Assembly: GCA_964621305.1 (NCBI GenBank)
Contig: CAZUOM010000005.1
Coordinates: forward strand, 18,647-82,646
DNA: 64,000 nt
Direction: 5' to 3'
Source of the DNA: an uncultured Gammaproteobacteria bacterium
GTDB lineage: Bacteria; Patescibacteriota; Microgenomatia; UBA10105; UBA927
Numbering within the stretch: position 1 is the stretch's first letter; each line of letters opens with the position of its first letter. Shown here piece after piece: positions 13,427-32,235 of this stretch. The notes under the pieces were generated by a model. The model did no database searches, was not told the origin of the DNA, and saw only the letters and a list, made by a program, of their open reading frames with translations. The translations under genes were made by a program, and so were the position numbers.

Positions 13427-14209
13427 ATGAAAGTTAAAGCTATCAGAACGCATAAAATCAAGATTGGCGATAATCTGTATCAAATTTTAGACAAGTATCT
13501 GCCGAAACTAAAAGAAAAAGATATCATCGCTATTACCTCAAAAATAGTCAGCATCTGTCAAGGGAGAGTCGTTAAAAACGATGGAAAAGTTGATAAAAAG
13601 AAACTTATTCGTAGCGAGGCAGACTATTATTTTGAAAACGAGTTAACCCGCCGCCATGGTATCACGCTTACACTAAAAGAAAAGCCAACTTCAACGCTTA
13701 TCGCTAGCGCAGGCATAGACGAAAGCAACGGAAACGGCTACTTTATCCTTTGGCCGAAAGACGCTTTCAAAACCGCCGCCGAAATCTGGCTGCGCCTACG
13801 CGGTCAATACCGCGTCAATCGTATAGGAGTTCTTATTGTCGACAGCAACATCGTGCCGCTGCGCTGGGGCACGCGCGGACTGGCCGTGGGCTGGTGCGGA
13901 TTTGACGGGCTTAAAGATTACATTGGAACGCCGGATATCTTCGGGAGAAGGCTCCGTGTGACAAAGCAAAACATCGCCGATGACCTCGCCGCTGCTGCCA
14001 ACTTGGTCATTGGCGAGGGTAATGAGCAAACACCAATTGCAGTTGTTTCCGAGGTGTCAGGTGTATCCTTTCAATACCGCCCGCCAACACAAAAAGAAAT
14101 CGGCTCCATGAGGATTTCGCTTGAAGAGGACATCTACGCGCCTCTTCTTACTTCAGTCAAGTGGAAACGGGGTCAGGCCTCGAAAAGATCGTCATACAGC
14201 TCTAGCTAG
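13427..14209 (+). CDS. cofE: coenzyme F420-0:L-glutamate ligase family protein (CofE-like gamma-glutamyl ligase)
   Basis: 260 aa; C-terminal half (GVLIVDSN...GWCGFDGLKDYIGTPDIFGRRLRVTKQNIADDLAAAANLVIGEGNEQTPIAVV) and N-terminal KIGDNL...DIIAITSKIVSICQGRVV match the conserved CofE core closely. Confidence 0.75.
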   Translation: MKVKAIRTHKIKIGDNLYQILDKYLPKLKEKDIIAITSKIVSICQGRVVKNDGKVDKKKLIRSEADYYFENELTRRHGITLTLKEKPTSTLIASAGIDESNGNGYFILWPKDAFKTAAEIWLRLRGQYRVNRIGVLIVDSNIVPLRWGTRGLAVGWCGFDGLKDYIGTPDIFGRRLRVTKQNIADDLAAAANLVIGEGNEQTPIAVVSEVSGVSFQYRPPTQKEIGSMRISLEEDIYAPLLTSVKWKRGQASKRSSYSSS

Positions 14210-14670: not shown

Positions 14671-16116
14671 TCACATTTCCTCAACGTTGTGCTGGGTAGA
14701 TTCACGAAAGCCGGCCTGGGTAATTCGGATGAAGCGTGCGTTTTTCCAGAGCTCGGAGATGGTTGCGGCATTGCAGTAACTCATGCCACTGCGCACTGCG
14801 CCAACCAGCTGATTGACTACGTCTTTTGCCGCTCCTTTGTACGGCACAAACGTTTCGACCCCCTCTGGCACAACTTCTTCCAATTCCTTGTCAAGCTCTC
14901 CCTCCGCAAATTCCTTCCTTGATGCTACCGCCGAAAATGACGCTGCCCCACGGTGGACTTTATACTTTTGCCCTTTGCGAAGAAGAATACTCCCCGGGCT
15001 CTCATCGGTACCTGCTAACCAGCCGGCAATCATGACACATGAAGCCCCAGCGGAAAGCGCCTTCGTCATGTCAGCCTGGTAATTCGTTCCTCCGTCGGCA
15101 ATAAGTGGCACTTGAGCTCGATGACCAACTGGCGAACAATCCAAAATCGCCGTTAACTGCGGTACGCCAGCGCCAGCCACGATACGAGTAATGCAAATGC
15201 CACCAGGGCCAATACCAACTTTAACCGCATCAACGTCAAGCCGAATCAAGTCACGGGCCGCCTGGGCAGTCGCTATGTTTCCTACGATAACATCTGTATT
15301 GTGAGCAAGTTTCCTTAACTTCTTAATTGCAAGCATGCCATGCGTTGAGTGAATGTGCGCTATATCGACAACCAGCGCGTCAACTCCGGCCTTAACAAGC
15401 TCTGTTGCCCGCTCTAGGTAATCGCCAACTACGCCCACAGCCGCGCCCACCCGCAACCTTCCATGACTGTCTTGTGTAGCATTGGGGTAGCGGTTTTCAT
15501 TAAGGACAGTCCGGGATGTAATTAGCCCTCCAAGTGTACCGTCACGATGAAGAAGAGGCAGCTTTTCTACTTTATGTTTACGGAAAAGCTTTCTTGCTTG
15601 ATCAAGCGTTATTCCGACACCAGCGATAACCAATTTAATCGCCGGAGTCATAATTTGGCTCATTTTTTTACCCTCGTTATCTAAAAACCACATGTCTCGA
15701 TCGGAGACTAAACCCAAGACTTTATTCTTTTCATCTACGATAATGGCGCTGCTCACATTATGCTGCCTCATAAGCGCTCTGGCCTCTGCAACTGTCTGGC
15801 CAGGCCCAAGAGTAAATGGCGTACCCATAATAAATCCTTCACTACGTTTAACCTTCCGCACTTCCGCTACTTCCCGTTCGATAGTCATAAACCTATGGAT
15901 TATGCCGATACCGCCGAGTTTAGCCATAGCGATAGCCATGTTGCTTTCCGTAACCGTATCGATGTTGGAGGAAACAAAAGGGATAGCAATCTCGATGTTT
16001 CGGGAAACCTTGGTTTTCGTAGAAACGACTTTGCGTGATGTAATCCGCGACTTCTGCGGCACAAGAAGTACGTCGTCGTAAACTAAACCAAGTGGCAAGC
16101 GATTTGCATTTATCAT
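14671..16116 (-). CDS. guaB: inosine-5'-monophosphate dehydrogenase
   Basis: 481 aa; IMPDH active-site loop [24 protein letters not shown] and an inserted CBS pair. Confidence 0.9.
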
Positions 16117-17375
16117 AGCCGCAAAAAAGCTCTTCGTTCCGGTCCTACAGAAATATACTTAATCGGAACGCCCAGCTGAACAGAGAGAAATTTTATGTAT
16201 CGCCGTGCAGCCTTGGGAAGTTTTCTTGCTGACTTAATGTCATCAATGTTTTCTTGCCAACCGTCAAATGTTTTGTAGACTGGTAAACAATGACCGAGGG
16301 TATTTACTTCTGACGGAAACTCACGGAGAAGCTTATTCCCAAAGCGATAAGCCACACAAATTTTTAGTTGTGTAAGACCAGACAAAACATCAAGTTTGGT
16401 AATGGCAAGGCTGCTGCAACCGTTGAGTCCAACGCCGTAGCGCAGCATCGGTAGATCTAGCCACCCGCATCGGCGCTTTCGTCCAGAGACCGTGCCAACT
16501 TCACGACCTGCCTCTTGCAGATACTGCCCTATTTGATTGGCTTGTTCCGTTGGAAAAGGGCCATTGCCAACACGCGTCGTATATGCCTTGACTACGCCCA
16601 AAACAGGGATATCGCATGGGGCTATTCCAACGCTAGGGAATACTGCCCCGGCAATAGTTGGAGGAGCGACAGTATATGGATACGTGCCAAATACGGGATC
16701 CAGCATCGTCCCGTGAGCTTGTTCAAACAAAAAACGTTTTGAACCAAGGTTCTCCGACGCCTCAGTCGACACATCGCCCATATACGCAGCGAGTTGTTTT
16801 CCGTACGAAACGCACTCCGATAAAATTGATTCCTCTGTCAAGTTAGTTTTCATACCATAGGCCTTTTCTATGATGGCGATTTTAAGTGGTAAAAGGTGTT
16901 TTAATTTTTCTTCCAAAACTTTAGGCGTCACGAGATCTTCGAGACGAACTCCGGCGCGATTATTGCGGTCTTCGTAGCAATAGCCGATCCCTAGATGGAG
17001 GCTGCCTGTTGCGCGTTTACCTTTCCACTGCTCGGTTGCCGCATCAAGAAGTTTATGGTAAGGCATGACGATGTGGCAGCGCGGGTCAATTGTCAAATGT
17101 ACTGGATAACCCGCCTTCACAAGGAAAGCAACCTCGTCTAAGAGCACGTTTGGCGTAATAACGACGCCCTGAGCTATAAGAAGTTTTTTTCCGTGAAGCA
17201 CTCCAGACGGTATCAAGGATAGGGGAAATTTTTTTCCGTCAGCGACCACGGTGTGTCCGGCATTATTGCCGCCATTCCAGCGGACAACATAATCAAATCT
17301 TGGCGCTATGGCATCAATTACTTTCCCTTTGCCTTCGTCTCCCCACTGAAGGCCAACGACGATGAGCGACTTCAT
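16113..17375 (-). CDS. purA: adenylosuccinate synthetase
   Basis: 420 aa; N-terminal VVGLQWGDEGKGK P-loop and GGNNAGHTV motif. Confidence 0.9.
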   Translation of the reverse strand: MKSLIVVGLQWGDEGKGKVIDAIAPRFDYVVRWNGGNNAGHTVVADGKKFPLSLIPSGVLHGKKLLIAQGVVITPNVLLDEVAFLVKAGYPVHLTIDPRCHIVMPYHKLLDAATEQWKGKRATGSLHLGIGYCYEDRNNRAGVRLEDLVTPKVLEEKLKHLLPLKIAIIEKAYGMKTNLTEESILSECVSYGKQLAAYMGDVSTEASENLGSKRFLFEQAHGTMLDPVFGTYPYTVAPPTIAGAVFPSVGIAPCDIPVLGVVKAYTTRVGNGPFPTEQANQIGQYLQEAGREVGTVSGRKRRCGWLDLPMLRYGVGLNGCSSLAITKLDVLSGLTQLKICVAYRFGNKLLREFPSEVNTLGHCLPVYKTFDGWQENIDDIKSARKLPKAARRYIKFLSVQLGVPIKYISVGPERRAFLRL

Positions 17376-18736
17376 ATCATTTTTTCGGCACGCTTGACTG
17401 CCTCATCAACTATTCGTCCGGCAAACGGATTGTTCTGCTCAGTGATTATTTTTTTCAATTCGTCCTTTTGTTTTTCACTAAGAGATAACCTGTCAACAAT
17501 GGTCCACAGTTGCTGTGGGTTCAACGATTTTCCGCGAGTTTTTTCCTTGAGCCTGTCGTACATATCGGAAATTCCACTAACCAGTCCATACGCCTTGATT
17601 GTTTCTAGCCAAATTTCCGGATGTTTTTGGACATCTGCAGCTATTGCGTTTCGGTCAACACTAATGCGCGACAGTCCCTTGACAATGCTTTGATAGGATA
17701 GGATGCTATACGCAATTGGTATCACGAGGTTCCTGCGCACAGTCGAGTCTGAAAAGTCTCTCTGCAAGCGATTAATAGGAAGTTTTCTACACATTGCCTC
17801 GATGACTCCATTGGCAAACTCAAGCCCTCCTTCAGCTCCTTCAAAATAGATGGGGTTGACTTTGTGAGGCATTCCGCCAGAACCCACTTCTTTTTTAACT
17901 GGAATTACTCTAAGATACCCAAGTAAGACGTATAGCCAAAGATTTTTTACGAAATCTATAAGGATGCTGTTTAGCCGAAATAGACTCTGCAAATAACGAA
18001 CTAATCCCTCGTAAGGCACGATCTGCGTAGTCGCATGGCAAGATTCTAGGCCAAGACTAGCGATGAAATGGTCAGTTAATACAATCCAGTCTAGCTTTGG
18101 CTCGACAGCATAAAGAGCCTGAAATGATCCCACTTCACCTGAACATTTTGCAAAGAAAGAAAAATTTTGAAACATTTCTACCTCGTCGCACAATCTTGAC
18201 AGGGGAACGGCTAGTTCTTTCCCAAAAGTTGTCACGTTTGCCCGCTGCGCGTGCGTGCGGGCGACCAGCACTGTATCTCGCTCGGCCTTAGCAAACACCA
18301 CAAGCTTTTTTACGATATTTCTTAGTGGTGGCAGCAACACGTCTTCCCTGCTCTGCTTAAGAATTAGTGATAGCGCGATTGAATTAATATCTTCAGATCC
18401 GATACCGAGATTAACAAATTGTCTATATTCAGCTCGCGTGTGATGCTCGAGAAATAATTCTATTGCCTTCAAATCATGATTGGTTATACGTTCGAACTCT
18501 TGAATTTTTTTGGCTTTATCTAAAGAAAAATTGTTGATGACAGATCTCAATTTAGGATAATTCCTTTTCATAACAACTTTTACAATCCAGATTAAGTATT
18601 CAACCATCACATAAAGCCGTCTCTCCATCCATGCAAATTCCGAAAAATACTGGCGAAGACTGACCAATTTACGGCTATTTCTCCCATCAAAATGGGTCAA
18701 GGCAAAGAGCGGTTCTGAAGCCTCCCAGTTAATCAT
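17372..18736 (-). CDS. purB: adenylosuccinate lyase
   Basis: 454 aa; fumarate-lyase signature GSGGMPHKVNP; downstream of purA with start/stop overlap. Confidence 0.8.
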   Translation of the reverse strand: MINWEASEPLFALTHFDGRNSRKLVSLRQYFSEFAWMERRLYVMVEYLIWIVKVVMKRNYPKLRSVINNFSLDKAKKIQEFERITNHDLKAIELFLEHHTRAEYRQFVNLGIGSEDINSIALSLILKQSREDVLLPPLRNIVKKLVVFAKAERDTVLVARTHAQRANVTTFGKELAVPLSRLCDEVEMFQNFSFFAKCSGEVGSFQALYAVEPKLDWIVLTDHFIASLGLESCHATTQIVPYEGLVRYLQSLFRLNSILIDFVKNLWLYVLLGYLRVIPVKKEVGSGGMPHKVNPIYFEGAEGGLEFANGVIEAMCRKLPINRLQRDFSDSTVRRNLVIPIAYSILSYQSIVKGLSRISVDRNAIAADVQKHPEIWLETIKAYGLVSGISDMYDRLKEKTRGKSLNPQQLWTIVDRLSLSEKQKDELKKIITEQNNPFAGRIVDEAVKRAEKMI

Positions 18737-20388
18737 GCTCGGCTGGCGGCAGTGAGAAAATCTAGAAACAGCGGATGTGGCCGAAGTGGGCGAGAACGAT
18801 ATTCAGGATGAAATTGCGTGCCGAGAAAAAATGGGTGAACGCTTTTAGGTAATTCAATGATTTCAACCAGGTTCTCGACCACCGATCTTCCCGAAATCAC
18901 AAAACCGGCATCTTCAAATTGCTTTGTATACGCTTCGTTAAATTCGTAGCGGTGCCTGTGCCGCTCACCAACAATTTTTTTGGATGCATTGTCATACCCT
19001 TTCTCGCTCGTATAACTTAGATCTGCTAGCGTTCCTTCTTTTACTTTGCACTCCCACCGCCCCAAACGCATAGTACCGCCATAGGCGCGGCGTTTAAGAA
19101 TTTTGTCCTGGCCGCTAATCATGTGGATAACGGGGTGATTGGTATCTACATCACATTCGAGAGTATGAGCATCACGAAGCCCCAAGGCGTTGCGAGCAAA
19201 CTCGACAACTGCCAATTGCATGCCGTAGCAAAGGCCTAAGTATGGAATCTTGTTGACGCGGGCAAAATTAATGGCTTTTATTTTCCCCTCCACCCCCCGC
19301 GGCCCCCAGCCAATCGGCACGATAATACTATCTGCCTCAGAAAGGTACTCGTAACTTCCTTTTTCCAGATTCTCCGCCTGGATCCAGCGGACGTTAGTCG
19401 CGATGCCGAGATTCCACGAGGCATGGTCGATTGCGTCCATGAGAGCGGCGTAACTATCGCGGAGTTGATACTCGCCTGTGGCAAAGTACTTCCCTACAAT
19501 TGCGATTCTGACAGACTGTGATTTTTTCTTTTTTAGACGCGAAACCATATTCGACCACTGAGTCAGATGTAGTTTCTTGCCAGGCATGTCAAGAAGGGTA
19601 AGAATTTTCTCATCCATGCCTTGCGAGGCAAGTGACAGAGGCGTTTCGTAGACGCTGGTCTGGTCCACGCTGTTGATGATGTGATCAGTTTCGACGTTGC
19701 AAAAAAGGGCCAGACGATTGCGACGACGCTCGTCCATGGGTTTTTCCGACCTGGCGACGATAAAATCCGGCTGAATACCCATGGAGTTGAGAGTTCGAAC
19801 CGATAGTTGGGTGGGCTTAGTCTTTGGCTCCCCCAAGTGATAAGGAGTCGGTAAGTAGCTCACGTGGACGTGGACGACTTTATTTTTTTTGTTGTGCGCG
19901 AGAATCCTCGAAGCCTCATAATAAAGAACATTTTGATACTCGCCCGCAGTGCCACCGAGTTCAACCACAACGATATCTGCTTTTTCTTTTTCCCCGGCTT
20001 CGCCAATTCGACGGATAATTTCATCAGTCACATCTGGTACGGCCTCAACGTCCTCACCATTGTATTCAAAGTTGCGCTCGCGATCTATAACCGCCTTGTA
20101 AATCTGCCCCATGGTGATGAAGTTGCGCCGGTACATATTTTTGTCCAGAAACTTCTCATAGCTGCCCATGTCCATGTCTGCCTCTGTTCCGTCTTCGCAC
20201 AGAAAGGGATCGCCGTGCTCTATGGGGTTAATCAATCCCGCATCGATATTGAGGTAATTTTCGCACTTTACAGGAGTAACTCTATATCCGCGAGACTGGA
20301 GAAGTAGGGCTATAGAGGCTGTCGTAACGCCTTTTCCAAGGCCTGAGATGACGCCACCAGAGACAAAAATGTACTTTGTGGGTTGCAC
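18733..20388 (-). CDS. pyrG: CTP synthase
   Basis: 551 aa; N-terminal KYIFVSGGVISGLGKG and C-terminal glutamine amidotransferase domain (LGLCYGMQLAVVEFARN). Confidence 0.95.
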   Translation of the reverse strand: MQPTKYIFVSGGVISGLGKGVTTASIALLLQSRGYRVTPVKCENYLNIDAGLINPIEHGDPFLCEDGTEADMDMGSYEKFLDKNMYRRNFITMGQIYKAVIDRERNFEYNGEDVEAVPDVTDEIIRRIGEAGEKEKADIVVVELGGTAGEYQNVLYYEASRILAHNKKNKVVHVHVSYLPTPYHLGEPKTKPTQLSVRTLNSMGIQPDFIVARSEKPMDERRRNRLALFCNVETDHIINSVDQTSVYETPLSLASQGMDEKILTLLDMPGKKLHLTQWSNMVSRLKKKKSQSVRIAIVGKYFATGEYQLRDSYAALMDAIDHASWNLGIATNVRWIQAENLEKGSYEYLSEADSIIVPIGWGPRGVEGKIKAINFARVNKIPYLGLCYGMQLAVVEFARNALGLRDAHTLECDVDTNHPVIHMISGQDKILKRRAYGGTMRLGRWECKVKEGTLADLSYTSEKGYDNASKKIVGERHRHRYEFNEAYTKQFEDAGFVISGRSVVENLVEIIELPKSVHPFFLGTQFHPEYRSRPLRPHPLFLDFLTAASRA

Positions 20389-21835: not shown

Positions 21836-22492
21836 TCATGCGGACGCGGATTTCTCTTCTAAAAATTTTTTCCCGTGGCCAATTTTGATATTAATTGGTC
21901 TACCAGCTTTACACAGAGGACAGACCGCCGCATCAAATGCTTCGGCTTTCAGGACGCCGAGAGCAGAAAATGGCGCGCCGACCAAATCTGCGTTGACATG
22001 CTCTGGATCTCGGTTGACCATAACACAAACGGCTACAACGGTACCGCCTGCAGTGCGCACGGCGTCCACGACTTTCTTTACCGACATGCCAGTCGTCGTG
22101 AGATCTTCAATGACTAATACGTTCTTTCCGGGGATAAGCTTGTCATAGCCACGTCGAAATGATTGCTCGCTTTCGACTGCTGAGGCTAGCGTCCCTTTAT
22201 CTTTCTCAGTATAAGCGCTCAGTATTTCTTTCTTTTTCAGCTCGGAAAGGTGATAGGCTACCCACTGTGAAAGAATCGTTCCACCTACGGCTGGCGCAAC
22301 CACTACATCAATTTTCTTGTTTTTAAATTTTTCGGCAAACATTTTCCCTGCCTTTGACGTTTCACCAGTGTGGGGGTAGAGCGCGTCTTTATTGATGTAG
22401 ACGCTCCCATGTTTTCCCGACGTATAGACAAAATGATCATCCACAAGTACCGCTCCTATCTTTTTGAGAATTTGAATAATGCCTTTGTTCAT
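21836..22492 (-). CDS. pyrE: orotate phosphoribosyltransferase
   Basis: 218 aa; type-I PRTase PRPP-binding motif VLVIEDLTTTGMS; adjacent to pyrF. Confidence 0.8.
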   Translation of the reverse strand: MNKGIIQILKKIGAVLVDDHFVYTSGKHGSVYINKDALYPHTGETSKAGKMFAEKFKNKKIDVVVAPAVGGTILSQWVAYHLSELKKKEILSAYTEKDKGTLASAVESEQSFRRGYDKLIPGKNVLVIEDLTTTGMSVKKVVDAVRTAGGTVVAVCVMVNRDPEHVNADLVGAPFSALGVLKAEAFDAAVCPLCKAGRPINIKIGHGKKFLEEKSASA

Positions 22493-22497
22493 ATCAC

Positions 22498-23352
22498 TTA
22501 TCGGTGTCGATTGATTCCTGCTTTTAGCAGTTGCGTGGCTTGTCGTGCTTTTTGAGCAAAATTTTCTCCAGATGATGCGAAAATGATAGCTCGTGAGGAG
22601 TTGATCATCAAGCCGCCTTTTTGGTTGTTAAGGCCTGCCTGAAGGGTTTTTTGAATGTCTCCTCCTTGCGTGCCGATTCCTGGCACAAGGAGCGGCATTT
22701 CGTCTCCCACTATTCGTCGCACAATGGCAAGCTCAGTAGGGTAGGTAGCTGCGACGACTAAACCACAGTTGCCGTTCGTATTCCACTCACGGCTCACCTT
22801 TTCGGCAACTACTTGGTAGAGCGGCTTGCCACCTGTCTTGAGATCCTGCAGCTCTCCTGCCCCTGGATTGGATGTGCGGCACAAAATGATGCAGCCTTTG
22901 TCCTTTCTATCCAAAAACGGCTGAAGTGCTTCGCGGCCAAGATACGGGTGAAGCGTGATGGCATCGACACCAAGGTAATCAAAGGCGTAGGCCACATACC
23001 CCTCGTTTGTGCTCCCAATGTCAGCTCGTTTAGCATCGAGAATAATGGGTATATCCGGATACGTTACGCGTAGGTAATCGCACGTCATTTTTAGCTCTCT
23101 TATGCCCTCTGCCCCGCGCGCTTCATAAAATGCGCTATTCGGTTTATACGCGCAGACGAGGTCATGAGTCGCGTCAATGATGGATTTGTTGAAGGTAAAC
23201 TGGGGCGTTTTGTCCTCTTGTAGACGTTGCGGAATCTTACGAATATCGCTATCTAGCCCCACGCAGACAAGAGAATTATTTTTCTTAACGATCGCATCAA
23301 GTTTCTGCTCAATTGGCCTAGACTTTTTATTCATATTCTGCGAGTAAGCCAT
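22498..23352 (-). CDS. pyrF: orotidine-5'-phosphate decarboxylase (long, type 2)
   Basis: 284 aa; LVCVGLDSD and ILDAKRADIGSTNEGY motifs of OMP decarboxylase. Confidence 0.85.
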   Translation of the reverse strand: MAYSQNMNKKSRPIEQKLDAIVKKNNSLVCVGLDSDIRKIPQRLQEDKTPQFTFNKSIIDATHDLVCAYKPNSAFYEARGAEGIRELKMTCDYLRVTYPDIPIILDAKRADIGSTNEGYVAYAFDYLGVDAITLHPYLGREALQPFLDRKDKGCIILCRTSNPGAGELQDLKTGGKPLYQVVAEKVSREWNTNGNCGLVVAATYPTELAIVRRIVGDEMPLLVPGIGTQGGDIQKTLQAGLNNQKGGLMINSSRAIIFASSGENFAQKARQATQLLKAGINRHR

Positions 23353-24680
23353 TGACCAGAATTTTGTCCCACAATTTTTCCTTTTTCATATACCAGGTTT
23401 CCTCGCAAGAATGTTGCTATTGGCCTACCGATAAGCTTCATTCCTTCATAGGCTGACCAGCGCTGCTTTGTAAATAAATCTTCTTTTTTTACAACCCAAG
23501 GTGTTTTCAGATCGACAATGGTGAAATCCGCATCGTTACCTATATTTATACCAGATTTTTGTGGATATCCAAAAAACTTGGCTACATTAGTTGAACTACA
23601 ACGAGCAAGACGGATTAGTCCTTCTTCAAGAGTATCAAGTCCAAACGTTTTTACCCAGCCAGTCAAAAAAGCCGCGACGCTTTCTTGTATTCCAGGGGTG
23701 CCGCTAACCGCCTTCCAGATATCTCCCTTTTTCTCGCTTAATGGATGTGGAGTGTGTTCAGAACAAATCCCATCTACCATACCCTGCCGAACCATTTGCC
23801 ACAACTGTCGCGTTTCTTTTACGCCTCGAAGCGCAGGACATACTTTGATTAGCTTGCCATATTTCTTGTAATCTCTTGTACTGAAAAACAACTGGTAGAC
23901 AGCAATCTCTCCTCCTGTCTGAATCCCTTGTTTTCGGCCATAAGCTATAGCCTCAAATTCTCCTTGCGTACTTGCATGAAGAATCCATAACTTTGTACCA
24001 AAGTGTTTAGCCAAAACTATCGCTTCCCATGACGCCATTTCTACCACAAGCTCACTCCGAGCTTCTGAGTACGCCAACATGTCCATGCGTCCGGCCTTTT
24101 TATATGCCTTTTCACGGCTCGTGACTAGATCTTGATTTTCAGCATGCACAAGAACCGGAAATGAACGTCTCGCCGCTATCTCCCAAATACGTGCTTGGTC
24201 AGAAAGCTTAGGAATCGTCGTTGGCGTCGTCTGATGCCCTGCTGTAAATACTTTGACACCAGTGATTTCTCTGGGATCGACTTTCTCAAGTTCTGGTATA
24301 TCAGAAACAGAAACACCGAAATTAATGGCAAAATCACAGTATGAATTCTTTTTATAGCGTTCGATCTGTTCATGAAGTAATTTAACTGTGGTTGTCGGAG
24401 GAAGCACATTGGGCATGTCAAAAACTGTTGTGAATCCGCCAGCCAAAGCTGCCCGAGACCCATGAGCTATTGTTTCTTTATGTTCGAGTCCAGGCTCCCG
24501 AAAATGTGCGTGTGTTTCAATAAGTCCCGGAAGTACATATTTCCCATTGGCATCAAAGAACTGGGCTTCGTCACCTGGATGTGAACTGATTTGTTTAATT
24601 TTGCCTTTTTCAATGCGAATGCCTCCCAGAATGATTTTGTCTGCGGTCACTATACGTGCGTTTTTAATACCCTTGATCAT
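23331..24680 (-). CDS. pyrC: dihydroorotase
   Basis: 449 aa; amidohydrolase metal-binding start GLIETHAHFREPG and cyclic-amidohydrolase architecture; in a pyr operon. Confidence 0.85.
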   Translation of the reverse strand: MIKGIKNARIVTADKIILGGIRIEKGKIKQISSHPGDEAQFFDANGKYVLPGLIETHAHFREPGLEHKETIAHGSRAALAGGFTTVFDMPNVLPPTTTVKLLHEQIERYKKNSYCDFAINFGVSVSDIPELEKVDPREITGVKVFTAGHQTTPTTIPKLSDQARIWEIAARRSFPVLVHAENQDLVTSREKAYKKAGRMDMLAYSEARSELVVEMASWEAIVLAKHFGTKLWILHASTQGEFEAIAYGRKQGIQTGGEIAVYQLFFSTRDYKKYGKLIKVCPALRGVKETRQLWQMVRQGMVDGICSEHTPHPLSEKKGDIWKAVSGTPGIQESVAAFLTGWVKTFGLDTLEEGLIRLARCSSTNVAKFFGYPQKSGINIGNDADFTIVDLKTPWVVKKEDLFTKQRWSAYEGMKLIGRPIATFLRGNLVYEKGKIVGQNSGQWLTRRI

Positions 24681-24687
24681 TCTAATT

Positions 24688-26340
24688 CTAATGGGTAGCC
24701 AGTGTAACGACAGGTACTTTTTTTATTTGTAGTTTTCCTTTTTCTTTATAAACTACGATGTTTTTCTGCCATTCACTCTTTATTTTAGGATAGTCCGACC
24801 TAAAATGAGCTCCTCGACTTTCTTTTCGCTCAAGAGCTGCATGAATGATGATTTTTGCAACCACAAGCATTTCTTGTGTCTCCAACGTACTTTGAAGTGT
24901 ATCTAGTGTTGCTTTTAAATTATTTGCTTTCTTTTGAAGATCTTCTACAACTCTTTTAGCTTTTACTAAGCTATTTTTGTTTCGTACGATTCCTACAAAA
25001 TCCCACATTGTTTGTTTAAGTTTGGACATCAACTCTTCAAAACTCGCGCCATTGGGTTTATTCAATAATTTCTGAATACGATTATATTCTGAGTTTACTT
25101 TTGACTTAGGAATATCTGGGAATTTCTGCGATTTTATATACCATGCCGCCCGTAAGCCACAACGCCTGCCAAATACTTGTAGTTCAGCTAGTGAATTCCC
25201 CCCCAGCCTATTGGCTCCATGCACTCCTCCGGCGACCTCGCCACAGGAAAAAAAACCGGCAACTGTGCTCTCTCCCCACTCGTTTATCTTCACTCCTCCC
25301 ATAACATGGTGCATTGTAGGAGTTATTTCCATGCGCTCTTTGGCTATATCGACGCCTATTTTTCGATATTTCTCTTGGACATCTGGAATGAGTTTGATTA
25401 TTTCCTGACGAGAGAGGTGAGTAACGTCGAGCCACACCCCACCATTTTGGGTCCCTCTTCCCTCTTTTATTTCCGTATAGATAGCTCGGGTCACCTCGTC
25501 TCGACCTGCTAGTTCTAATCGCTCTGGCTGATACTTTTTCATAAATCGTTCGTTTTTTGAGTTCCATAGAGTTCCCTTATGTCCACGAACTTTTTCTGTG
25601 ATTAAACTCCCCCTCACCGATGGGGGAAATACCATACCAGTAGGGTGGAATTGAATCATTTCCATGTCCACAAGTTTTGCACCGATATCGTAGGCATACG
25701 CGTACCCTTCTCCAGTATTACTCGGTTCATTTGACGTAACCAGATATAGTTGACCAGCCCCGCCTGAGCTTAAAACGACAGCTTTAGCTTTAAATAAAGT
25801 GAATTCTTTATGCGCAGTGTCATAGGCAAACGCTCCTGCGGCTTTTCCATGGGAGGTAAATATTTTTGTCACGTAGTAGTTTGAGTAAAAAGGAACCTTT
25901 CGACGTTTGATTTCGCGAGCCAAACCCTTCATTATTTCTCGGCCGGTGTAGTCACCTACACAAAGGTTTAAGGGTGCAGACTGTTTACCCCCTGCCCAGG
26001 TATAAAACGTGCCATCGGGTAGTCGATCAAAACGGACGCCATAGGATTCAAGATCATAAATCCTATCAGGCATCTCTCGAGTAAAGATATCAACCAAGAC
26101 TTGATTGTTAATAAGCGCTCCTCCCTTTATAGTGTCATCATAGTGCTGTTTAGGCGTGGCTGGCGCTTTAATTGCAACATTAAGGCCACCCATAGCTTTT
26201 TCTGTATGGGCCCTGCCGAAGGGTTCTTTCGAGATTATAGCTATTTTTACTTTCTCGCTAGACGCCTCAATGGCTGCCCGCAAACCAGCGCCGCCTGCGC
26301 CGATTATCAGAAGATCGGTGATTATTGTTTTATACTTCAT
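24688..26340 (-). CDS. FAD-dependent flavoprotein of the SdhA/FrdA/NadB family (L-aspartate oxidase or soluble fumarate reductase)
   Basis: 550 aa; Rossmann start IIGAGGAGLRAA, HVMGGV...GEVAGGVHGANRLGGNSL and C-terminal ESRGAHFRSDYP motifs; no SdhB/C/D partners nearby. Confidence 0.7.
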   Translation of the reverse strand: MKYKTIITDLLIIGAGGAGLRAAIEASSEKVKIAIISKEPFGRAHTEKAMGGLNVAIKAPATPKQHYDDTIKGGALINNQVLVDIFTREMPDRIYDLESYGVRFDRLPDGTFYTWAGGKQSAPLNLCVGDYTGREIMKGLAREIKRRKVPFYSNYYVTKIFTSHGKAAGAFAYDTAHKEFTLFKAKAVVLSSGGAGQLYLVTSNEPSNTGEGYAYAYDIGAKLVDMEMIQFHPTGMVFPPSVRGSLITEKVRGHKGTLWNSKNERFMKKYQPERLELAGRDEVTRAIYTEIKEGRGTQNGGVWLDVTHLSRQEIIKLIPDVQEKYRKIGVDIAKERMEITPTMHHVMGGVKINEWGESTVAGFFSCGEVAGGVHGANRLGGNSLAELQVFGRRCGLRAAWYIKSQKFPDIPKSKVNSEYNRIQKLLNKPNGASFEELMSKLKQTMWDFVGIVRNKNSLVKAKRVVEDLQKKANNLKATLDTLQSTLETQEMLVVAKIIIHAALERKESRGAHFRSDYPKIKSEWQKNIVVYKEKGKLQIKKVPVVTLATH

Positions 26341-26347
26341 TTTCCTC

Positions 26348-27280
26348 TTACAACATAAGCGCTAGGAGGGCCATACGCACGTACATACCGTTTCGCATTT
26401 GTTCGGTTATATAGACAGCTCGCCTATCTTGATCGCTGTCCATCGTAATTTCACCAACTCTGGGAAACGGATGCATGACAATTGCTGTTTTTTTCATTTT
26501 CGCCAAGATTTTGGGTGTCACAACATAACGATGTTTCAGTTTTTCGTAGAGCTCAAAATCAGAAAATCGTTCTTTTTGAACACGAGTAACATATAAAACG
26601 TCCGTTTCAGAAAGAATCGGATCAAGATTCTCATATTCAGAAAAGTTGACTTTCCGCTCTTTAAGAAGAGCAAGGAGAGTGGGCGATACGCGCAAATGGT
26701 CCGGCGAGACAAAATTGAGTTTCACGCCTTTATAGAGCGATACGAGTTTGGCAAGAGAATGGATGGTTCTGCCATTGTACATATCGCCAATCATGCTGAT
26801 CGCAAGGCCCCCCAACTTTGGAAAATGGCGGGTAATCGTATAAAAATCGAGAAGCGCCTGGGTCGGATGCTCGCCTATGCCATCTCCGGCGTTTATGACT
26901 GGTTTTTGGCAAAATTCAGAGGCGATCTTGGCAGAGCCTACTTCCGGGTGACGGATCACGATAATATCGGAAAAACTTTCGAAAGTCCGCACAGTATCTG
27001 GCAGCGACTCACCCTTTGAGACGGAGGAATAGGTCACGCCTTGCAAAGGAATAATACTGCCTCCAAGCCGTTGCATAGCGGCAATGAATGACCCAAATGT
27101 CCTGCTTGATGGCTCGTAAAAGAGCGCTGTCATAACCTTTCCTCTGAGTTGATCATTGCCTCCTTTTGTTTCAACAAGCCGTTTCATTCGACTAGCCTGC
27201 TCGACCACTATATCAAGGTCATACGTACTAAACTGCTCCGCACTCAAGATGTCGTGGTGGGAAAAATTATTTTTAGCCAT
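26348..27280 (-). CDS. pyrB: aspartate carbamoyltransferase catalytic subunit
   Basis: 310 aa; carbamoyl-phosphate-binding SSRTFGSF and HPTQALLD (HPTQ rather than HPCQ favours ATCase over OTCase). Confidence 0.85.
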   Translation of the reverse strand: MAKNNFSHHDILSAEQFSTYDLDIVVEQASRMKRLVETKGGNDQLRGKVMTALFYEPSSRTFGSFIAAMQRLGGSIIPLQGVTYSSVSKGESLPDTVRTFESFSDIIVIRHPEVGSAKIASEFCQKPVINAGDGIGEHPTQALLDFYTITRHFPKLGGLAISMIGDMYNGRTIHSLAKLVSLYKGVKLNFVSPDHLRVSPTLLALLKERKVNFSEYENLDPILSETDVLYVTRVQKERFSDFELYEKLKHRYVVTPKILAKMKKTAIVMHPFPRVGEITMDSDQDRRAVYITEQMRNGMYVRMALLALML

Positions 27281-30200
27281 AGGCCTCCTTCCGCTGTTGA
27301 ACCCGATAATACCACTCCAGTGGTTTCACAGGAACTGACGCAATAGCAAAGCGTGACGTTGCCAAAATAAAATAAGTCGCCGTTTGCGTTGAGGTAAAAA
27401 CGGGAATACCGGCATCGATTGCGACTCGACGCATACGATAGCCTTCTGTCTCGACATGATATCCATTAACATTGTCTGGCTTCTCTTGTCTCGGTACAAT
27501 TACTGCAAAATCGATCGCTTTTTGCTCTAATAAATCCAAGACGTTGGGACGACGATCCGTTACTTTTCCAATCCTGGTTGCGTCTATTCCATTTTCTCTG
27601 AGAAAAAGCGAAGTTGCGTCTGTTGCATATATCCTAAATCCTTTGGAAGCCAGCTTCTGGCAGCCATATAATAATTGAAGTTTATTTCGGCTCCCTCCGA
27701 GACTAATCAGTACTGCTTTTTTAGTAGGAAATGCCACGCCAGTAGAAAGAATTGCTTTAAAATAGGCCTCAAGTGGATCAAGTCCAAAGGAAGCAACCTC
27801 GCCGGTTGAGCGCATCTCAACGGCCAGTATCGGATCGGAACCTCGCAGCTTATGGAATGAAAACTGCGGTACTTTGACACCAACAAACGGCTGCTGATTA
27901 ATCGAGTTTTTAGGTGTAGGAAGGTCAAGGATGACCTTTGTGGCTAGTTCAATGAAGTTATCGCCGCTAGTTTTACTCACAAATGGCATGCTTCGGGAAG
28001 CTCGCAAATTACACTCGATCACGTATGTCAAATCTTGTCCGATTATAAACTGAATATTAAACGGGCCGTGTATATGAAGGCTAGCAGATATTAGTTTTGT
28101 TGCTCTTTCTATAACGCGCCTAGAATCTGCCTCAATCGAAGTTATAGGATACTGAATAGTTGAATCGCCAGAGTGAACACCAGCCGGCTCCACGTGCTCA
28201 GAGATGGCAAGCGCTATAACCTTGCCATTTCTGGAAACTCCGTCAACATCACATTCGCGGCAAGCATCAAGATATTCAGTCATAACCATTGGGTAGGTTT
28301 TCGACACCTCAATCTGATTTTTCAGGTATAAAGCTAGTTCCTGGTCACTGGCGACTACCTTCATAGCTTTACCTGAAAGAACGAAGGAGGGTCGAAGTAT
28401 CACTGGGTAACTTATGCGTCTGGCTTCTGAACGAGCCTGCTTTATACTCGCTACGCTGGCCCACTTAGGTTGGGCGATCTTTAACTTATCTAAGAGTAAA
28501 CTAAAAGTCCGTCTATCTTCAGCCCTCCTGACATCAACCGATTGGGTCCCTAAAATCGGCACACCGTAGTCGGACAAGCCGCGTGTCAAATTATTGGGTA
28601 TTTGTCCGCCAACCGCACAGACAAACGGAGCTTTTTCAATATCATATATATCTAGCACCCGCTCTAAGGTTAGCTCTTCAAAGTATAGCTTGTCAGAATA
28701 GTCATAGTCCGTTGAGACGGTTTCGGGATTGCAGTTGACCATAATCGTCCCAAAGCCACGATCGCGAAGCGTTTTTATGGTATTGACAGCGCACCAATCA
28801 AATTCTACCGACGTTCCAATGGCGTATGGACCGGCTCCAACTACCACGATCTGTTTTTCTTTATGAAGGGGAATCTCGTCACTGGTTTTGGCGTGATAGG
28901 TGAGATAGAGGTAATTGGTTTGGGCTGGAAACTCTCCAGCTAGGGTATCGATTCGCTTAACATATGGGACAATTCCTGCTCGTTTTCTTTTTACTCTTAT
29001 GCTATCAGCGTTGGTTTTACGAAGGAGGGCTATTTGCTCATCGCAAAACCCATATTGCTTGGCTATTTTCAGAAGTTTTGCTTTAAGTCTCTTGGCATTT
29101 TTGAGCACTTTATAGACACCAACAATGCTAGCAAACTCACTTATATACCAACGGTCAATTTTAGTGATTTTGCTGATTTTATCAATAGAAATCCCCGCTC
29201 GTAGGGACGAACAAATGCTAAATAAACGCATAGAATCGGGTACTTTAAGTTTCTTTTGCAATTCCTGTTTTGACAGTTTCCCGAAACGCGAATCGATAAC
29301 ACCGATAAATCCGTCGTTAAGCATCCGAGCAGCCTTTTGGATCGCCTCGGGAAATGTCCGTCCGATACTCATAACTTCACCAACGCTCTTCATTTCGCTA
29401 CCGATTTCGGTTTTGACTCCCCAAAACTTATCCAGATCCCACCGGGGAATTTTAACTACAATATAGTCCAAACTTGGCTCAAAAAAGGCCGAGGTGACAC
29501 CAGTTATGTTATTTATAAGATCGGGTAATTTCTTACCTAAAGCCAGTTTGGCAGCAATGTAGGCCAGGGGATACCCGGTGGCCTTGGATGCCAGTGCCGA
29601 TGAGCGAGAAAGTCGAGCGTTGACTTCGATGATACGGATATCGTCGTGCTTAGGGTGAATAGCAAATTGTATGTTACACTCACCAATGACTCCAAGATTA
29701 CGGATAACATCTATCGATATCTGACGCAGCCGATAATATACCTTATCGTTAAGCGTCTGGGAGGGTGCAACCACAATCGATTCTCCAGTATGGACACCAA
29801 CTGGATCCATGTTTTCCATATTACAAACGGTAATACAATTATCTTTTCCGTCGCGCACCACCTCATACTCCACCTCTTTCCAACCCCATAAGCTTTCTTC
29901 AAGGTACACTTGAGAACTCGTTGCCAAGGCAAAACTAAGGATTTTAGTTAGTTCGATGCTGTTTCTTGCAATGCCGCTTCCCGTTCCTCCTAAAGCAAAC
30001 CCGGACCGAACCATGACGGGGTAACCGATACGTTTAGCAACTGTTAGTCCCATGCCTGTAGTAGTCACCGTTTGACCTTTTGCCGTGGCAATACCAATTC
30101 TGGCCAGGCGCTTGGCGAACCGATGACGATCTTCTGTTGTCAGAATTGCTTCAATTGGTGTTCCCAGAATGGCAACATGATGTTTTTCCAGGATGCCGCT

Positions 30201-30494
30201 AGTCTGAAGAGCTAGGCCGCAATTTAACGCCGTCTGGCCGCCAAAAGACAGTAGTATGCCGTCAGGTTTCTCTTTTTCGATGACGCGACTGACAAATTCT
30301 AGCGTTATGGGCACAAAATAGACCCGGTCGGCGAACCCCTGAGAAGTCTGAATGGTGGCAACATTTGGGTTTACCAAAACAACTTTACAGCCTTCTTCTT
30401 TGAGCGCTTTAATAGCCTGTGTTCCAGAGTAGTCAAATTCACCAGCTTCTCCGATTTTCAAGGCACCGGATCCGAGCAACAGAACTTTTTTCAT
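27273..30494 (-). CDS. carB: carbamoyl-phosphate synthase large subunit
   Basis: 1073 aa; duplicated ATP-grasp halves, N-terminus KVLLLGSGALKIGEAGEFDYSGTQA. Confidence 0.95.
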   Translation of the reverse strand: MKKVLLLGSGALKIGEAGEFDYSGTQAIKALKEEGCKVVLVNPNVATIQTSQGFADRVYFVPITLEFVSRVIEKEKPDGILLSFGGQTALNCGLALQTSGILEKHHVAILGTPIEAILTTEDRHRFAKRLARIGIATAKGQTVTTTGMGLTVAKRIGYPVMVRSGFALGGTGSGIARNSIELTKILSFALATSSQVYLEESLWGWKEVEYEVVRDGKDNCITVCNMENMDPVGVHTGESIVVAPSQTLNDKVYYRLRQISIDVIRNLGVIGECNIQFAIHPKHDDIRIIEVNARLSRSSALASKATGYPLAYIAAKLALGKKLPDLINNITGVTSAFFEPSLDYIVVKIPRWDLDKFWGVKTEIGSEMKSVGEVMSIGRTFPEAIQKAARMLNDGFIGVIDSRFGKLSKQELQKKLKVPDSMRLFSICSSLRAGISIDKISKITKIDRWYISEFASIVGVYKVLKNAKRLKAKLLKIAKQYGFCDEQIALLRKTNADSIRVKRKRAGIVPYVKRIDTLAGEFPAQTNYLYLTYHAKTSDEIPLHKEKQIVVVGAGPYAIGTSVEFDWCAVNTIKTLRDRGFGTIMVNCNPETVSTDYDYSDKLYFEELTLERVLDIYDIEKAPFVCAVGGQIPNNLTRGLSDYGVPILGTQSVDVRRAEDRRTFSLLLDKLKIAQPKWASVASIKQARSEARRISYPVILRPSFVLSGKAMKVVASDQELALYLKNQIEVSKTYPMVMTEYLDACRECDVDGVSRNGKVIALAISEHVEPAGVHSGDSTIQYPITSIEADSRRVIERATKLISASLHIHGPFNIQFIIGQDLTYVIECNLRASRSMPFVSKTSGDNFIELATKVILDLPTPKNSINQQPFVGVKVPQFSFHKLRGSDPILAVEMRSTGEVASFGLDPLEAYFKAILSTGVAFPTKKAVLISLGGSRNKLQLLYGCQKLASKGFRIYATDATSLFLRENGIDATRIGKVTDRRPNVLDLLEQKAIDFAVIVPRQEKPDNVNGYHVETEGYRMRRVAIDAGIPVFTSTQTATYFILATSRFAIASVPVKPLEWYYRVQQRKEAYG

Positions 30495-31546
30495 AAAAGA
30501 TCAAATATCCACTCTGTGTCATGTGGACCGGGGTTTCCTTCCGGGTGAAACTGGCTCGTCCATATGCGCCGTTTTTCGTCAATCAGGCCTTCGTTAGTTT
30601 GGTCATTTAAGTTAATAAACCACTCGCCAATTCCTCTAGGCAACGATTCCCGTCTCACCGCGTACCCATGATTTTGACTGGTCACGTATGCCTTACCAGT
30701 TCGACTATCGCCCACTGGCTGATTTATCCCGCGATGACCGTAAGGCATTTTATAGGTGTCGGCTCCGAGTGAAAGTGCCAAAAGTTGATGCCCAAGGCAG
30801 ACACCGATAAACGGTATACCAGCATCAACAACACGTCTGATATTTTGTATCGTTTCCTGACAAGTTTTCGGATCGCCAGGACCATTGGAACAGAGAACAG
30901 TATCAATGTCTGAAATGACAAGCGGGTCACTATTCCAAGGAATCCGAGTCACCGTAAACCCACGGGATAAAAGCGCACGAAGAATGCCGTGTTTGACTCC
31001 GCAATCGATGAGCACAACGTGTTTAGTTCGCGAATTTTTGGACCGATATACCTGTACATCTGTGCAGCTCGTCTCGCTAACTAAATGATTTGAATCTTTT
31101 TCAAACAGAACCTTGGAACTTGCACTAATTTTTCCTAGAAGCGTTCCATATTCTCTAAGTTTAAGTGTTAATTTGCGCGTATCGATACCAGAAATTCCGG
31201 GAATTTTTTGTGAGAAGAGAAATTTGGAAAATGTTGTTTTTGATAGATAGTGTGAGGGAGTGTCGCAACTTTGGGCAACCACTACGCCCCGGACCCAAAT
31301 CCGCTGAGATTCAAAATTTTGTACAATATCTCCTACCAATTTTCTGGGTGATGGAATGCCGTAATTGCCGATCAACGGAAAGGTGAAAACCAAAATTTGA
31401 CCGTTGTATGAGGGATCTGTCAGGCTCTGAGGATAGCCTACCATGGCTGTTGAGAATACAACCTCACCGTTAGCTTGGCCTGGATAGCCGATAGCTTCTC
31501 CTTCAATTCGCGTGCCATCCTCAAGATGTAGGTATGTGCGTCCCAT
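30491..31546 (-). CDS. carA: carbamoyl-phosphate synthase small subunit (glutamine amidotransferase)
   Basis: 351 aa; class-I GATase catalytic loop GVCLGHQLLALSLGA; start/stop overlap with carB. Confidence 0.9.
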   Translation of the reverse strand: MGRTYLHLEDGTRIEGEAIGYPGQANGEVVFSTAMVGYPQSLTDPSYNGQILVFTFPLIGNYGIPSPRKLVGDIVQNFESQRIWVRGVVVAQSCDTPSHYLSKTTFSKFLFSQKIPGISGIDTRKLTLKLREYGTLLGKISASSKVLFEKDSNHLVSETSCTDVQVYRSKNSRTKHVVLIDCGVKHGILRALLSRGFTVTRIPWNSDPLVISDIDTVLCSNGPGDPKTCQETIQNIRRVVDAGIPFIGVCLGHQLLALSLGADTYKMPYGHRGINQPVGDSRTGKAYVTSQNHGYAVRRESLPRGIGEWFINLNDQTNEGLIDEKRRIWTSQFHPEGNPGPHDTEWIFDLL

Positions 31547-31572
31547 AAAAAAAGAGAGCCACTGCGGCTCTC
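31547..31572 (-). terminator. rho-independent terminator (minus strand), T-tract abuts the carA start codon
   Basis: minus-strand RNA GAGAGCCGCAGUGGCUCUC followed by UUUUUUU then AUG of carA. Confidence 0.6.
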
Positions 31573-31610
31573 AATGAGATACAACTCTATGCTGATTTCG
31601 TTTTTTTCCT

Positions 31611-31672
31611 AAAAAAAAACCCAGGGTATTCATCTCTGTGGGCTTGCCCGGCGTCAGACAGGCTCCTGGGGT
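31611..31672 (-). terminator. second, upstream rho-independent terminator (minus strand) downstream of the CBS/atp operon
   Basis: minus-strand RNA CCCCAGGAGCC...GGGUAUUCAUC...CCCUGGG structured hairpin followed by a run of nine U. Confidence 0.45.
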
Positions 31673-31701
31673 TCTAGTCTATCGACCAGCACCGGGATCT
31701 G

Positions 31702-32235
31702 TCAAGAGACAAAGTCAGATTTTTTCTTCTTTTTTGATGCGAGGTGGCGACGAAGCGATGATCCTCTTTTTTTTGAAAACCCCGGCAGCCGTAAGTGTTT
31801 TTTAAATAGCGTGTCGAAAATATCGCCTTTGGATATGACGCCAAGGAGCACATTCTGTTCGGATAATACCGGCAATTGTTGGACGTCTCGCACGATCATG
31901 CGGGAGAGCGCTCGAAGAATTGGGGTCTCAGAACGGGTAAATATCACGCGGCGATTCATCACGTGCTCTGCGCGCAGCTTAACTAAATCGTGAATTTTTT
32001 CCTCCATATCTTCAAAATCTGTTGCGGAAATAAAATCTTCAACAAGATGCTGGTAATCCGGGTACAGCGGCTTGAGAAGATCTTCTTCTGTAACGATACC
32101 TATTATCTTTTTCTTGGCATCAAGAACGGGTAGGGCATGGATTTTATGCTTGAAGATAGACTTCCATAAATCCCTAAAAGTCGTCTTAGGCTTGACCGCA
32201 ATAATGTCAATACTCATGATCTGGTGGACTTTCAT
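31702..32235 (-). CDS. CBS-domain pair protein with lysine-rich C-terminal tail
   Basis: 177 aa; two CBS motifs (IIAVKPKTTFRDL..., ILRALSRMIVRDVQQLPVL...); last gene of the atp transcription unit. Confidence 0.75.
   Translation of the reverse strand: MKVHQIMSIDIIAVKPKTTFRDLWKSIFKHKIHALPVLDAKKKIIGIVTEEDLLKPLYPDYQHLVEDFISATDFEDMEEKIHDLVKLRAEHVMNRRVIFTRSETPILRALSRMIVRDVQQLPVLSEQNVLLGVISKGDIFDTLFKKHLRLPGFSKKRGSSLRRHLASKKKKKSDFVS

Follow-up and report, generated by a model that had tools for sequence, protein, structure and literature searches.

Which enzyme oxidizes dihydroorotate when a pyrimidine operon carries every gene for uridine monophosphate (UMP) synthesis except pyrD, and a relative of succinate dehydrogenase sits between pyrC and pyrB? 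The question is raised by a 64-kb stretch of contig CAZUOM010000005.1 (the window, meaning the whole stretch analyzed), in which an open reading frame (ORF) at 24688-26340 on the minus strand encodes a 550-amino acid SdhA/FrdA-type flavin adenine dinucleotide (FAD) flavoprotein, here called X. Its presence between pyrC and pyrB was part of the original prediction, and the Pfam matches of X and the identity of the flanking genes confirm it. The conversion of dihydroorotate to orotate is the sole redox step of UMP synthesis. Dihydroorotate is cyclized N-carbamoyl-aspartate, that is, a succinate skeleton with an N-substituent on C-alpha, and it is oxidized by a C-alpha/C-beta trans-desaturation, the type of reaction catalyzed by SdhA. 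Because the only redox step of the pathway is the one that lacks its gene, and because the chemistry of its substrate resembles that of SdhA, we propose that X oxidizes the product of its neighbor PyrC. Judging from gene context and conserved residues, it is somewhat likelier than even that X is the dihydroorotate-oxidizing enzyme of the pathway, a nonhomologous replacement of PyrD that probably uses fumarate. X is a member of a real, conserved, and apparently unrecognized complex II-type subfamily tied to pyrC in pyrimidine operons without pyrD, for which public names are inconsistent ("fumarate reductase subunit A," "L-aspartate oxidase," "thiol-driven fumarate reductase," and "FAD-binding protein"). 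No earlier description of an Sdh-like enzyme in pyr operons was found in the literature searched, which lay largely outside subscription journals.

A pyrimidine operon without pyrD

The genes of the window operon are transcribed from the minus strand in the order carA-carB-pyrB-X-pyrC-pyrF-pyrE and are tightly packed. Seven nucleotides separate the pyrB stop codon from the ATG of X, which has a GAGG Shine-Dalgarno sequence upstream of it, and the distance from the X stop codon to the start of pyrC is also 7 nt. All genes of UMP synthesis are present, pyrD excepted, so that the claim of an operon complete but for dihydroorotate dehydrogenase (DHOD) is borne out by the gene models and by searches for PyrD across the 64 kb. 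Neither tblastn with E. coli PyrD and two class 1 probes nor a three-sequence hidden Markov model (HMM) run on six-frame segments found a PyrD-like sequence in the window, and the E. coli positive control scored 431 bits with the HMM. A PyrD-like ORF was likewise not found by tblastn and the small HMM in 33 pyr-linked loci (±10 kb, ∼465 kb in total) that carry homologs of X. The two class 1 sequences behind these probes are validated only by the E. coli control and by the detection of the distant barrel of IMPDH. No protein with a DHO_dh domain is present in the precomputed Pfam lists around X in a Roizmanbacteria contig, an 855-kb metagenomic contig, and Thermosporothrix hazakensis. X itself has no similarity to PyrD (PF01180, a flavin mononucleotide [FMN] TIM barrel), and any DHOD activity of X would therefore be analogous rather than homologous.

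Candidates for a hidden pyrD within the operons were considered and rejected. A single weak match to the PyrD HMM (L114, E 0.002) is the C terminus of IMP dehydrogenase, and the sporadic ORFs inserted in the operons are AbiE toxin-antitoxin pairs, Fic, methyltransferases, TauE, a SLOG protein, and extra phosphoribosyltransferases (PRTases).

Conservation of the X-pyrC neighborhood

X is found just upstream of pyrC, or of pyrC preceded by an SdhB-like gene, in the 33 pyr-linked loci wherever both genes are visible, and since the adjacency recurs in 33 other loci, its placement in the window is far beyond chance. The pyr-linked homologs are 50 to 67% identical and come from two distant phyla, represented by Roizman-, Gottesman-, and Levybacteria (Microgenomates of the candidate phyla radiation, CPR) and by Ktedonobacteria. 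The window itself has its best protein matches in Candidatus Roizmanbacteria and Gottesmanbacteria. Context was looked up for the Roizmanbacteria contig, the 855-kb metagenomic contig, and the cultured Thermosporothrix hazakensis (Ktedonobacteria, Chloroflexota), and in all three X lies directly upstream of pyrC, in or beside a carAB-pyrB-pyrE-pyrF cluster. When each GTDB species was represented by a single genome, the scan found seven close loci (56-62% identity), six of which have the X-pyrC pair. The remaining 73 loci of that scan hold archaeal homologs of 40 to 46% identity, and pyrC is adjacent in none of them; in the two archaeal loci examined in detail (L016 and L024), SdhA is followed by a three-cluster SdhB, and SdhB probes match nearly all of the archaeal SdhA loci. 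A metagenome scan with the window PyrC returned 23 loci in which PyrC is 46 to 56% identical, with X in every locus that extends upstream, and all 120 listed PyrC sequences with at least 53% identity to that of the window are either unnamed or named as CPR (Roizman- or Gottesmanbacteria) or Ktedonobacteria. Several of them lie on contigs equal in length to contigs with a match to X or to the SdhB-like protein.

Some further loci deserve mention. In L013 (9968-14440), from a metagenome-assembled genome (MAG) labeled Gammaproteobacteria, the X-pyrC pair stands beside a tyrosine recombinase (Phage_integrase) with no other pyr genes adjacent, an arrangement which suggests that X and pyrC move as a unit. 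In Thorarchaeota and two unassigned archaeal MAGs (L025, L038, L044, L055, L059, L069, and L087, in the first 3.6 kb), nadC lies ∼8 kb from an SdhA-like gene of 41 to 42% identity, and a PyrC-like amidohydrolase (27-30% identity) also lies ∼8 kb from that gene. Finally, the window contains a CofE-like gene of the F420-0:gamma-glutamyl ligase family (PF01996) at 13427-14209 (plus strand), between tRNA-Glu and tRNA-Lys, and a 48% identical homolog is located between carB and X in the 855-kb contig (L005/L006, 8042-8779). Such a gene is unexpected in a host not known for F420 synthesis, and a link to X is possible.

Two operon architectures

The pyr-linked loci fall into two groups. Group 1 consists of the window, other Roizman- and Levybacteria, and all Ktedonobacteria, with the order pyrB-carA-carB-X-pyrC-pyrE-pyrF or that of the window. 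Group 2 consists of the groundwater-metagenome loci L095 to L115 and L122, in which two extra genes are present and the order is X, an SdhB-like gene, pyrC, and AspA; their assignment to Microgenomates is based on the identity of their PyrE and PyrF to those of the window and on the names given to homologs of the SdhB-like protein (Roizman- and Gottesmanbacteria, "Patescibacteria group"). The SdhB-like protein (for example, L108 9325-9987 and L122 9337-9999) has 220 amino acids and belongs to the dhsB family (TIGR00384, 171 bits, cutoff 88). It keeps the cysteines of the 2Fe-2S and 4Fe-4S clusters, and all three 3Fe-4S ligands (C159, C206, and C212 in E. coli) are lost in 18 of 18 sequences, which leaves a soluble two-cluster protein lacking the quinone-proximal cluster. 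Its homologs form ∼100 protein clusters, all of them either named as CPR or unnamed, and none was found on a Ktedonobacteria contig or on the contig of the window. The AspA protein matches the aspartate ammonia-lyase subfamily (NF008909, 589 bits, cutoff 510) and has an aspartase-type GSSIMPGKVNPV(I/M)PE loop.

In the window, X was predicted to have no Fe-S or membrane-anchor partners. This is correct locally, as neither the 64 kb nor the group 1 loci contain an SdhB/FrdB-like Fe-S subunit, membrane anchor genes are absent, and the window has neither a TfrB-like gene nor an aspartase. It does not extend to the family, because the sister loci have the SdhB-like gene between X and pyrC. The two architectures can be compared directly in L122, which has the same backbone as the window (atpC-CBS-...-carA-carB-pyrB-...-pyrF-pyrE, with two unrelated genes between CBS and carA in L122) and which has X, the SdhB-like gene, and AspA at the site held by X alone in the window. 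The X of L122 is of the group 2 type and is 50% identical to the window protein. Given this exchange, and given that homologs of the SdhB-like protein were found only in CPR, the lone X of group 1 appears to do the job of X plus the SdhB-like protein.

Many group 2 operons have a conserved 294-amino acid ORF after pyrF (L095 9075-9959, L098 9147-10028, L099 5587-6471, L113 3880-4764, L114 16293-17177, L115 15375-16304, and L104 17648-18553), which is 82 to 88% identical among six of the loci and ∼60% identical to the copy in L104. The ORF does not occur in the window and has no sequence match in Pfam, NCBIfam, or the PDB; its C-terminal "ILISDFVNPASGASS" recalls a phosphoribosyl pyrophosphate-binding loop, and by eye it looks PRTase-like rather than like a TIM barrel. 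AbiEi/AbiEii toxin-antitoxin pairs and a Fic gene interrupt group 2 operons (L107 11448-12760; L115 4540-5852 and 13486-14526; L104 12988-14990), and in L104 three tandem paralogous PRTase-like genes replace pyrE and pyrF is split.

Family placement and active site

The Pfam matches of X are to FAD_binding_2 (PF00890, E 4e-83, residues 9-384) and Succ_DH_flav_C (PF02910, E 5e-22). SdhA chains in the PDB match it at E 1e-111 to 1e-70, the closest being SdhA of Mycobacterium smegmatis Sdh1 (7D6V_A, E 1e-111), and its best NCBIfam model is that of TfrA (NF004900), with 603.1 bits against a cutoff of 718; X scores below every curated cutoff. Phylogenetic placement had been posed as a choice between NadB and the TfrA/FrdA clades. 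In a neighbor-joining tree, groups 1 and 2 of X together form a monophyletic family of their own relative to archaeal SdhA and to E. coli SdhA, FrdA, and NadB (100 of 100 bootstraps), with archaeal SdhA as its nearest relatives. X is not NadB. The mean identity of X is 64% within group 1 and 54% between groups 1 and 2, compared with 43% to archaeal SdhA and 32 to 35% to the E. coli proteins.

X keeps the residues expected of a complex II flavoprotein. His45 lies in an RAHT sequence of the RSHT type (the 8-alpha-N3-histidyl FAD motif), is invariant in the 120 listed matches and in 16 further loci, and is the predicted covalent-FAD histidine. His232, Thr248, Glu249, Arg280, His344, and Arg378 correspond to FrdA His232, Thr244, Glu245, Arg287, His355, and Arg390, and this catalytic set is invariant, save that a single sequence of the 120 listed matches has Cys in place of Arg378.

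Around this preserved core, the pocket has been remodeled, with residues that do not vary in Sdh, Frd, and NadB uniformly exchanged in 129 + 16 family members. The family signature is Met50, Trp115, Gly117, Lys119, Leu124, Tyr131, Arg134, Lys250, and His345, and the corresponding sequence pattern is TWAGGK...PLN.C..DYTGR...TEK. The substitutions are shared by at least 93% of the 129 sequences of group 1 and by almost all of the 14 sequences of group 2, and they affect positions that do not vary in the comparators, namely 73 archaeal SdhA and E. coli SdhA and FrdA (E/Q, R, F, R, and R/K at 50, 115, 117, 124, and 131, respectively). In X, E/Q50 has become Met, Arg115 Trp, Phe117 Gly or Ser, Arg124 Leu, and Arg/Lys131 Tyr, and in addition position 134 has become Arg, Gly/Ala250 Lys, Asp61 Ala, and Tyr345 His; in SdhA-type numbering the pocket changes are F119G, R117W, Q/E50M, R133L, R140Y, and G256K. 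Of the residues affected, FrdA Glu49 and SdhA Gln50 presumably tune the catalytic direction, and we take Phe116 of E. coli FrdA and Phe141 of Wolinella succinogenes FrdA to pack on the bound dicarboxylate. Position 117 of X is equivalent to SdhA Phe119 and to NadB Glu121. In NadB, this glutamate hydrogen-bonds the amino nitrogen on C-alpha of L-aspartate, a neutral residue takes its place in succinate dehydrogenase and fumarate reductase, and residue 121 selects the C-alpha substituent (PMC10249383). As read from the alignment, the new pocket of X is under purifying selection, and space seems to have been opened where a C-alpha substituent would sit.

Proposed reaction

We infer the substrate, its binding mode, and the electron acceptor from the observed context, conservation, and pocket changes. 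X would be a soluble enzyme, derived from a complex II or TfrA flavoprotein, that oxidizes the (S)-dihydroorotate supplied by the adjacent PyrC to orotate. Dihydroorotate would sit over the flavin as succinate does, with the His232/Thr248 and His344/Arg378 pairs holding the carboxylate and the C4 carbonyl, Arg280 acting as the base that takes the C5 proton, and N5 of FAD accepting the C6 hydride. The replacement of Phe by Gly or Ser, together with Met50, Trp115, Tyr131, Arg134, and Lys250, may make space for the ureide portion of the ring and contact it. In X of the window type, which has no Fe-S partner, fumarate could reoxidize the flavin at the same site in a ping-pong mechanism, as in class 1A DHOD and NadB, or O2 could do so; in group 2, the two-cluster SdhB-like protein may carry the electrons away. 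The fumarate might come from the PurB reaction in the window, where purA and purB are nearby, and from the operon aspartase in group 2. If so, X would represent a fourth, nonhomologous class of DHOD, built on a complex II flavoprotein scaffold with covalent FAD and working alone or with a two-cluster SdhB-like subunit, a view toward which the evidence leans modestly. With a similar slight lean, we would place this class in the CPR Microgenomates and the Ktedonobacteria in place of PyrD, with fumarate from aspartase or from purine synthesis as the likely oxidant.

The proposed enzyme shares features with several known systems. X has the fold of complex II SdhA and FrdA (especially the archaeal and actinobacterial ones, for example 7D6V) and of TfrA, with the same order of FAD_binding_2 and Succ_DH_flav_C, and it likewise has the RSHT-type histidine and the His/Thr/Glu/Arg/His/Arg catalytic set. 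However, functional Sdh and Frd enzymes have an adjacent three-cluster Fe-S subunit and usually a membrane anchor or CCG domain, which X in the window lacks, and the sister loci of X encode a two-cluster protein in contrast to the three-cluster SdhB; SdhA and FrdA are found in tricarboxylic acid cycle and respiratory contexts, whereas X is in a pyrimidine operon; and TfrA has as its partner TfrB, with HdrB-like CCG domains, whereas X has no TfrB. The reaction proposed for X (dihydroorotate + fumarate → orotate + succinate) is that of class 1A DHOD (PyrDA, yeast Ura1), with which X also shares solubility, a position among pyr genes, and the proposed single-site ping-pong mechanism, although class 1A DHOD is an FMN TIM barrel and X, whose function we deduce, has an FAD Rossmann fold with a capping domain and no sequence similarity to it. 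NadB and X are both stand-alone soluble members of one superfamily, and NadB acts on an aspartate skeleton with fumarate or O2 as acceptor, but X is only 32% identical to NadB, has Gly or Ser in place of Glu121, has the covalent-FAD histidine, and never occurs with nadA or nadC. In class 1B DHOD (PyrD plus PyrK), as in the sister architecture of X, a flavoprotein is accompanied in the pyr operon by a small Fe-S protein with a 2Fe-2S cluster, but the subunits are unrelated to X and to the SdhB-like protein, which has 2Fe-2S and 4Fe-4S clusters and no FAD/NAD domain.

Alternative functions

Several observations weigh against dihydroorotate as the substrate. None of the residues with which a true fumarate reductase or succinate dehydrogenase binds dicarboxylates and performs catalysis has been lost from X, so that fumarate and succinate could be its sole substrates. 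A single-site ping-pong mechanism neither needs nor explains the SdhB-like partner of the sister loci, and the aspartase could equally make aspartate for PyrB. The absence of pyrD is local, covering the 64-kb window and ∼465 kb of related loci, and because many bacteria, such as the Actinobacteria, encode pyrD away from the other pyr genes, its lack in the operon is by itself weak evidence. In addition, the seventh close locus of the GTDB-species scan (L009) is an orphan X with no pyr genes within 10 kb.

Alternatively, X may be nothing more than a soluble fumarate reductase or succinate dehydrogenase of the usual kind that supports the pathway, either by serving an unlinked canonical PyrD as an electron sink or supply of fumarate or by maintaining, together with the aspartase, a succinate-fumarate-aspartate balance for PyrB. 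Such a role is unlikely in our estimation, though by no means far-fetched: it fits the retention of every Sdh/Frd catalytic residue and of the covalent-FAD histidine, the SdhB-like Fe-S partner and aspartate ammonia-lyase of the sister-locus operons, and the frequent separation of pyrD from the other pyr genes, which is general knowledge. Yet a class 1A PyrD reduces fumarate itself and classes 2 and 1B need none, which would make X redundant, and the redundancy would be strongest in the aerobic Ktedonobacteria, which retain X in the operon. Recycling of fumarate by X for a class 1A DHOD encoded elsewhere, one of the roles suggested in the original prediction, is the less economical reading. 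The exchange, family-wide, of pocket residues that are otherwise invariant would also be left unexplained; loci of the window type, with no Fe-S partner or aspartase within 64 kb, have no local electron wiring or aspartate supply; and the acceptor needed for succinate oxidation is not known from fermentative CPR bacteria. Aspartate supply proper, by way of succinate, fumarate, and aspartate, was considered and judged unlikely, since the window type and the Ktedonobacteria lack a local aspartase and the pocket is remodeled. In comparison, the suggestion of a fumarate-linked or noncanonical oxidation of dihydroorotate gains comparative support from the X-pyrC adjacency in two distant phyla, the remodeled pocket, and the sister-locus aspartase.

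A further possibility is that the pathway is reordered, such that X desaturates N-carbamoyl-L-aspartate to N-carbamoyl-aminofumarate and a coevolving PyrC cyclizes this product to orotate. Both carboxylate-binding pairs are kept and the change of Phe to Gly makes room at the C-alpha substituent, as this reaction would need, but the same residues would be needed equally if fumarate were the second substrate. The gene order pyrB-X-pyrC matches the order of steps, although gene order is weak evidence. On chemical grounds, closing the ring to orotate demands a trans geometry like that of fumarate, and this is what an Sdh-type enzyme would produce. The PyrC linked to X belongs to a clade of its own, scores barely above the dihydroorotase cutoff, and is matched nearly as well by allantoinase models, but it does pass the dihydroorotase model TIGR00857. 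The route is without precedent, and we consider it improbable.

Finally, that X is an L-aspartate oxidase (NadB) coregulated with the aspartate-consuming pyrB, as the original prediction offered, is very hard to sustain: one family member (P0093) is publicly annotated as "L-aspartate oxidase" and NadB models give 345 to 363 bits, but X is under every NadB cutoff (TIGR00551, 363 against 452.75) with TfrA and Sdh models far higher, the catalytic Glu121 is replaced by Gly (as in the window) or Ser, the RAHT His45 for covalent FAD stands where NadB has Ser, neither nadA nor nadC is present in the window or any pyr-linked locus, and the conserved partner of X is pyrC.

Implications

To our knowledge, a single superfamily, that of PyrD classes 1A, 1B, and 2, accounts for dihydroorotate oxidation in all organisms, and this step is a drug target. 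A replacement of PyrD on an Sdh scaffold would, if true, be a textbook-level case of nonorthologous displacement, and an example of how the chemistry of complex II can be redirected from succinate toward a cyclic ureide. It would also fill what looks like a gap in the metabolic reconstructions of CPR bacteria and Ktedonobacteria and correct the inconsistent public annotations of the X family. The proposal lends itself to direct testing, with Thermosporothrix hazakensis in culture and pyrD mutants of E. coli available.

Gene models and other features of the window

The start of X bears on its annotation. The NCBI gene model (P0001, 531 amino acids) begins at an internal Met and drops the first 19 residues, and with them DLLIIGAGGAG, that is, the GxGxxG FAD-binding motif (window 26284-26340, minus strand). 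The GAGG ribosome-binding site lies 4 to 5 nt ahead of the upstream ATG, and the 550-amino acid start, rather than that of the NCBI model, is the correct one.

The remaining genes of the operon, all on the minus strand, are carA (30491-31546), its first gene, encoding the small subunit of carbamoyl-phosphate synthase (TIGR01368, 401 bits, cutoff 307); carB (27273-30494), encoding the large subunit and overlapping pyrB by 8 nt; pyrB (26348-27280), encoding the aspartate carbamoyltransferase catalytic chain (TIGR00670, 332 bits, cutoff 237); pyrC (23331-24680), a dihydroorotase of the long type (TIGR00857, 290.6 bits, cutoff 279); pyrF (22498-23352), an orotidine monophosphate decarboxylase of subfamily 2 (TIGR02127, 246 bits, cutoff 111); and pyrE (21836-22492), an orotate phosphoribosyltransferase, for which the best model, pyrE_Therm, gives 125 bits, below its cutoff of 150. 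Beginning 1.4 kb beyond the operon are pyrG (18733-20388, minus strand), then purB and purA (together 16113-18736, minus strand; adenylosuccinate lyase and synthase, with the Pfam domains Lyase_1/ASL_C and Adenylsucc_synt), and then guaB.

The leader of carA (31554-31705, minus strand) is a putative pyrimidine-responsive attenuator. Its features are a promoter-like TTGACA-18-TAGACT and, with its end 8 nt before the carA ATG, a GC hairpin followed by T7; it has no match in Rfam. The layout (TTGACA-17/18-TAGACT, a GC-rich hairpin, and a T-run) is common to the window and to L122 (2319-2449), with differing stem sequences, and a further stem in the window leader, CCCAGG...CCTGGG, precedes T9 and, after it, A7. 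Both loci also encode a protein with tandem CBS domains (window 31702-32235, minus strand; L122 133-612), a possible nucleotide-sensing regulator whose gene lies between that of the ATP synthase epsilon subunit and the pyr operon.

Elsewhere in the window, the gene at 19-1125 (minus strand) encodes a fructose-1,6-bisphosphatase of the aldolase/phosphatase type (PF01950, E 9e-151), a type typical of archaea and deep-branching bacteria, and heads a gluconeogenic/glycolytic cluster of iPGM, enolase, a phosphoenolpyruvate synthase/PPDK-like protein, PGI, and PGM. An ORF at 38568-39056 (plus strand) has eight tandem heptad repeats, DGLSKR(V/F), in its translation.

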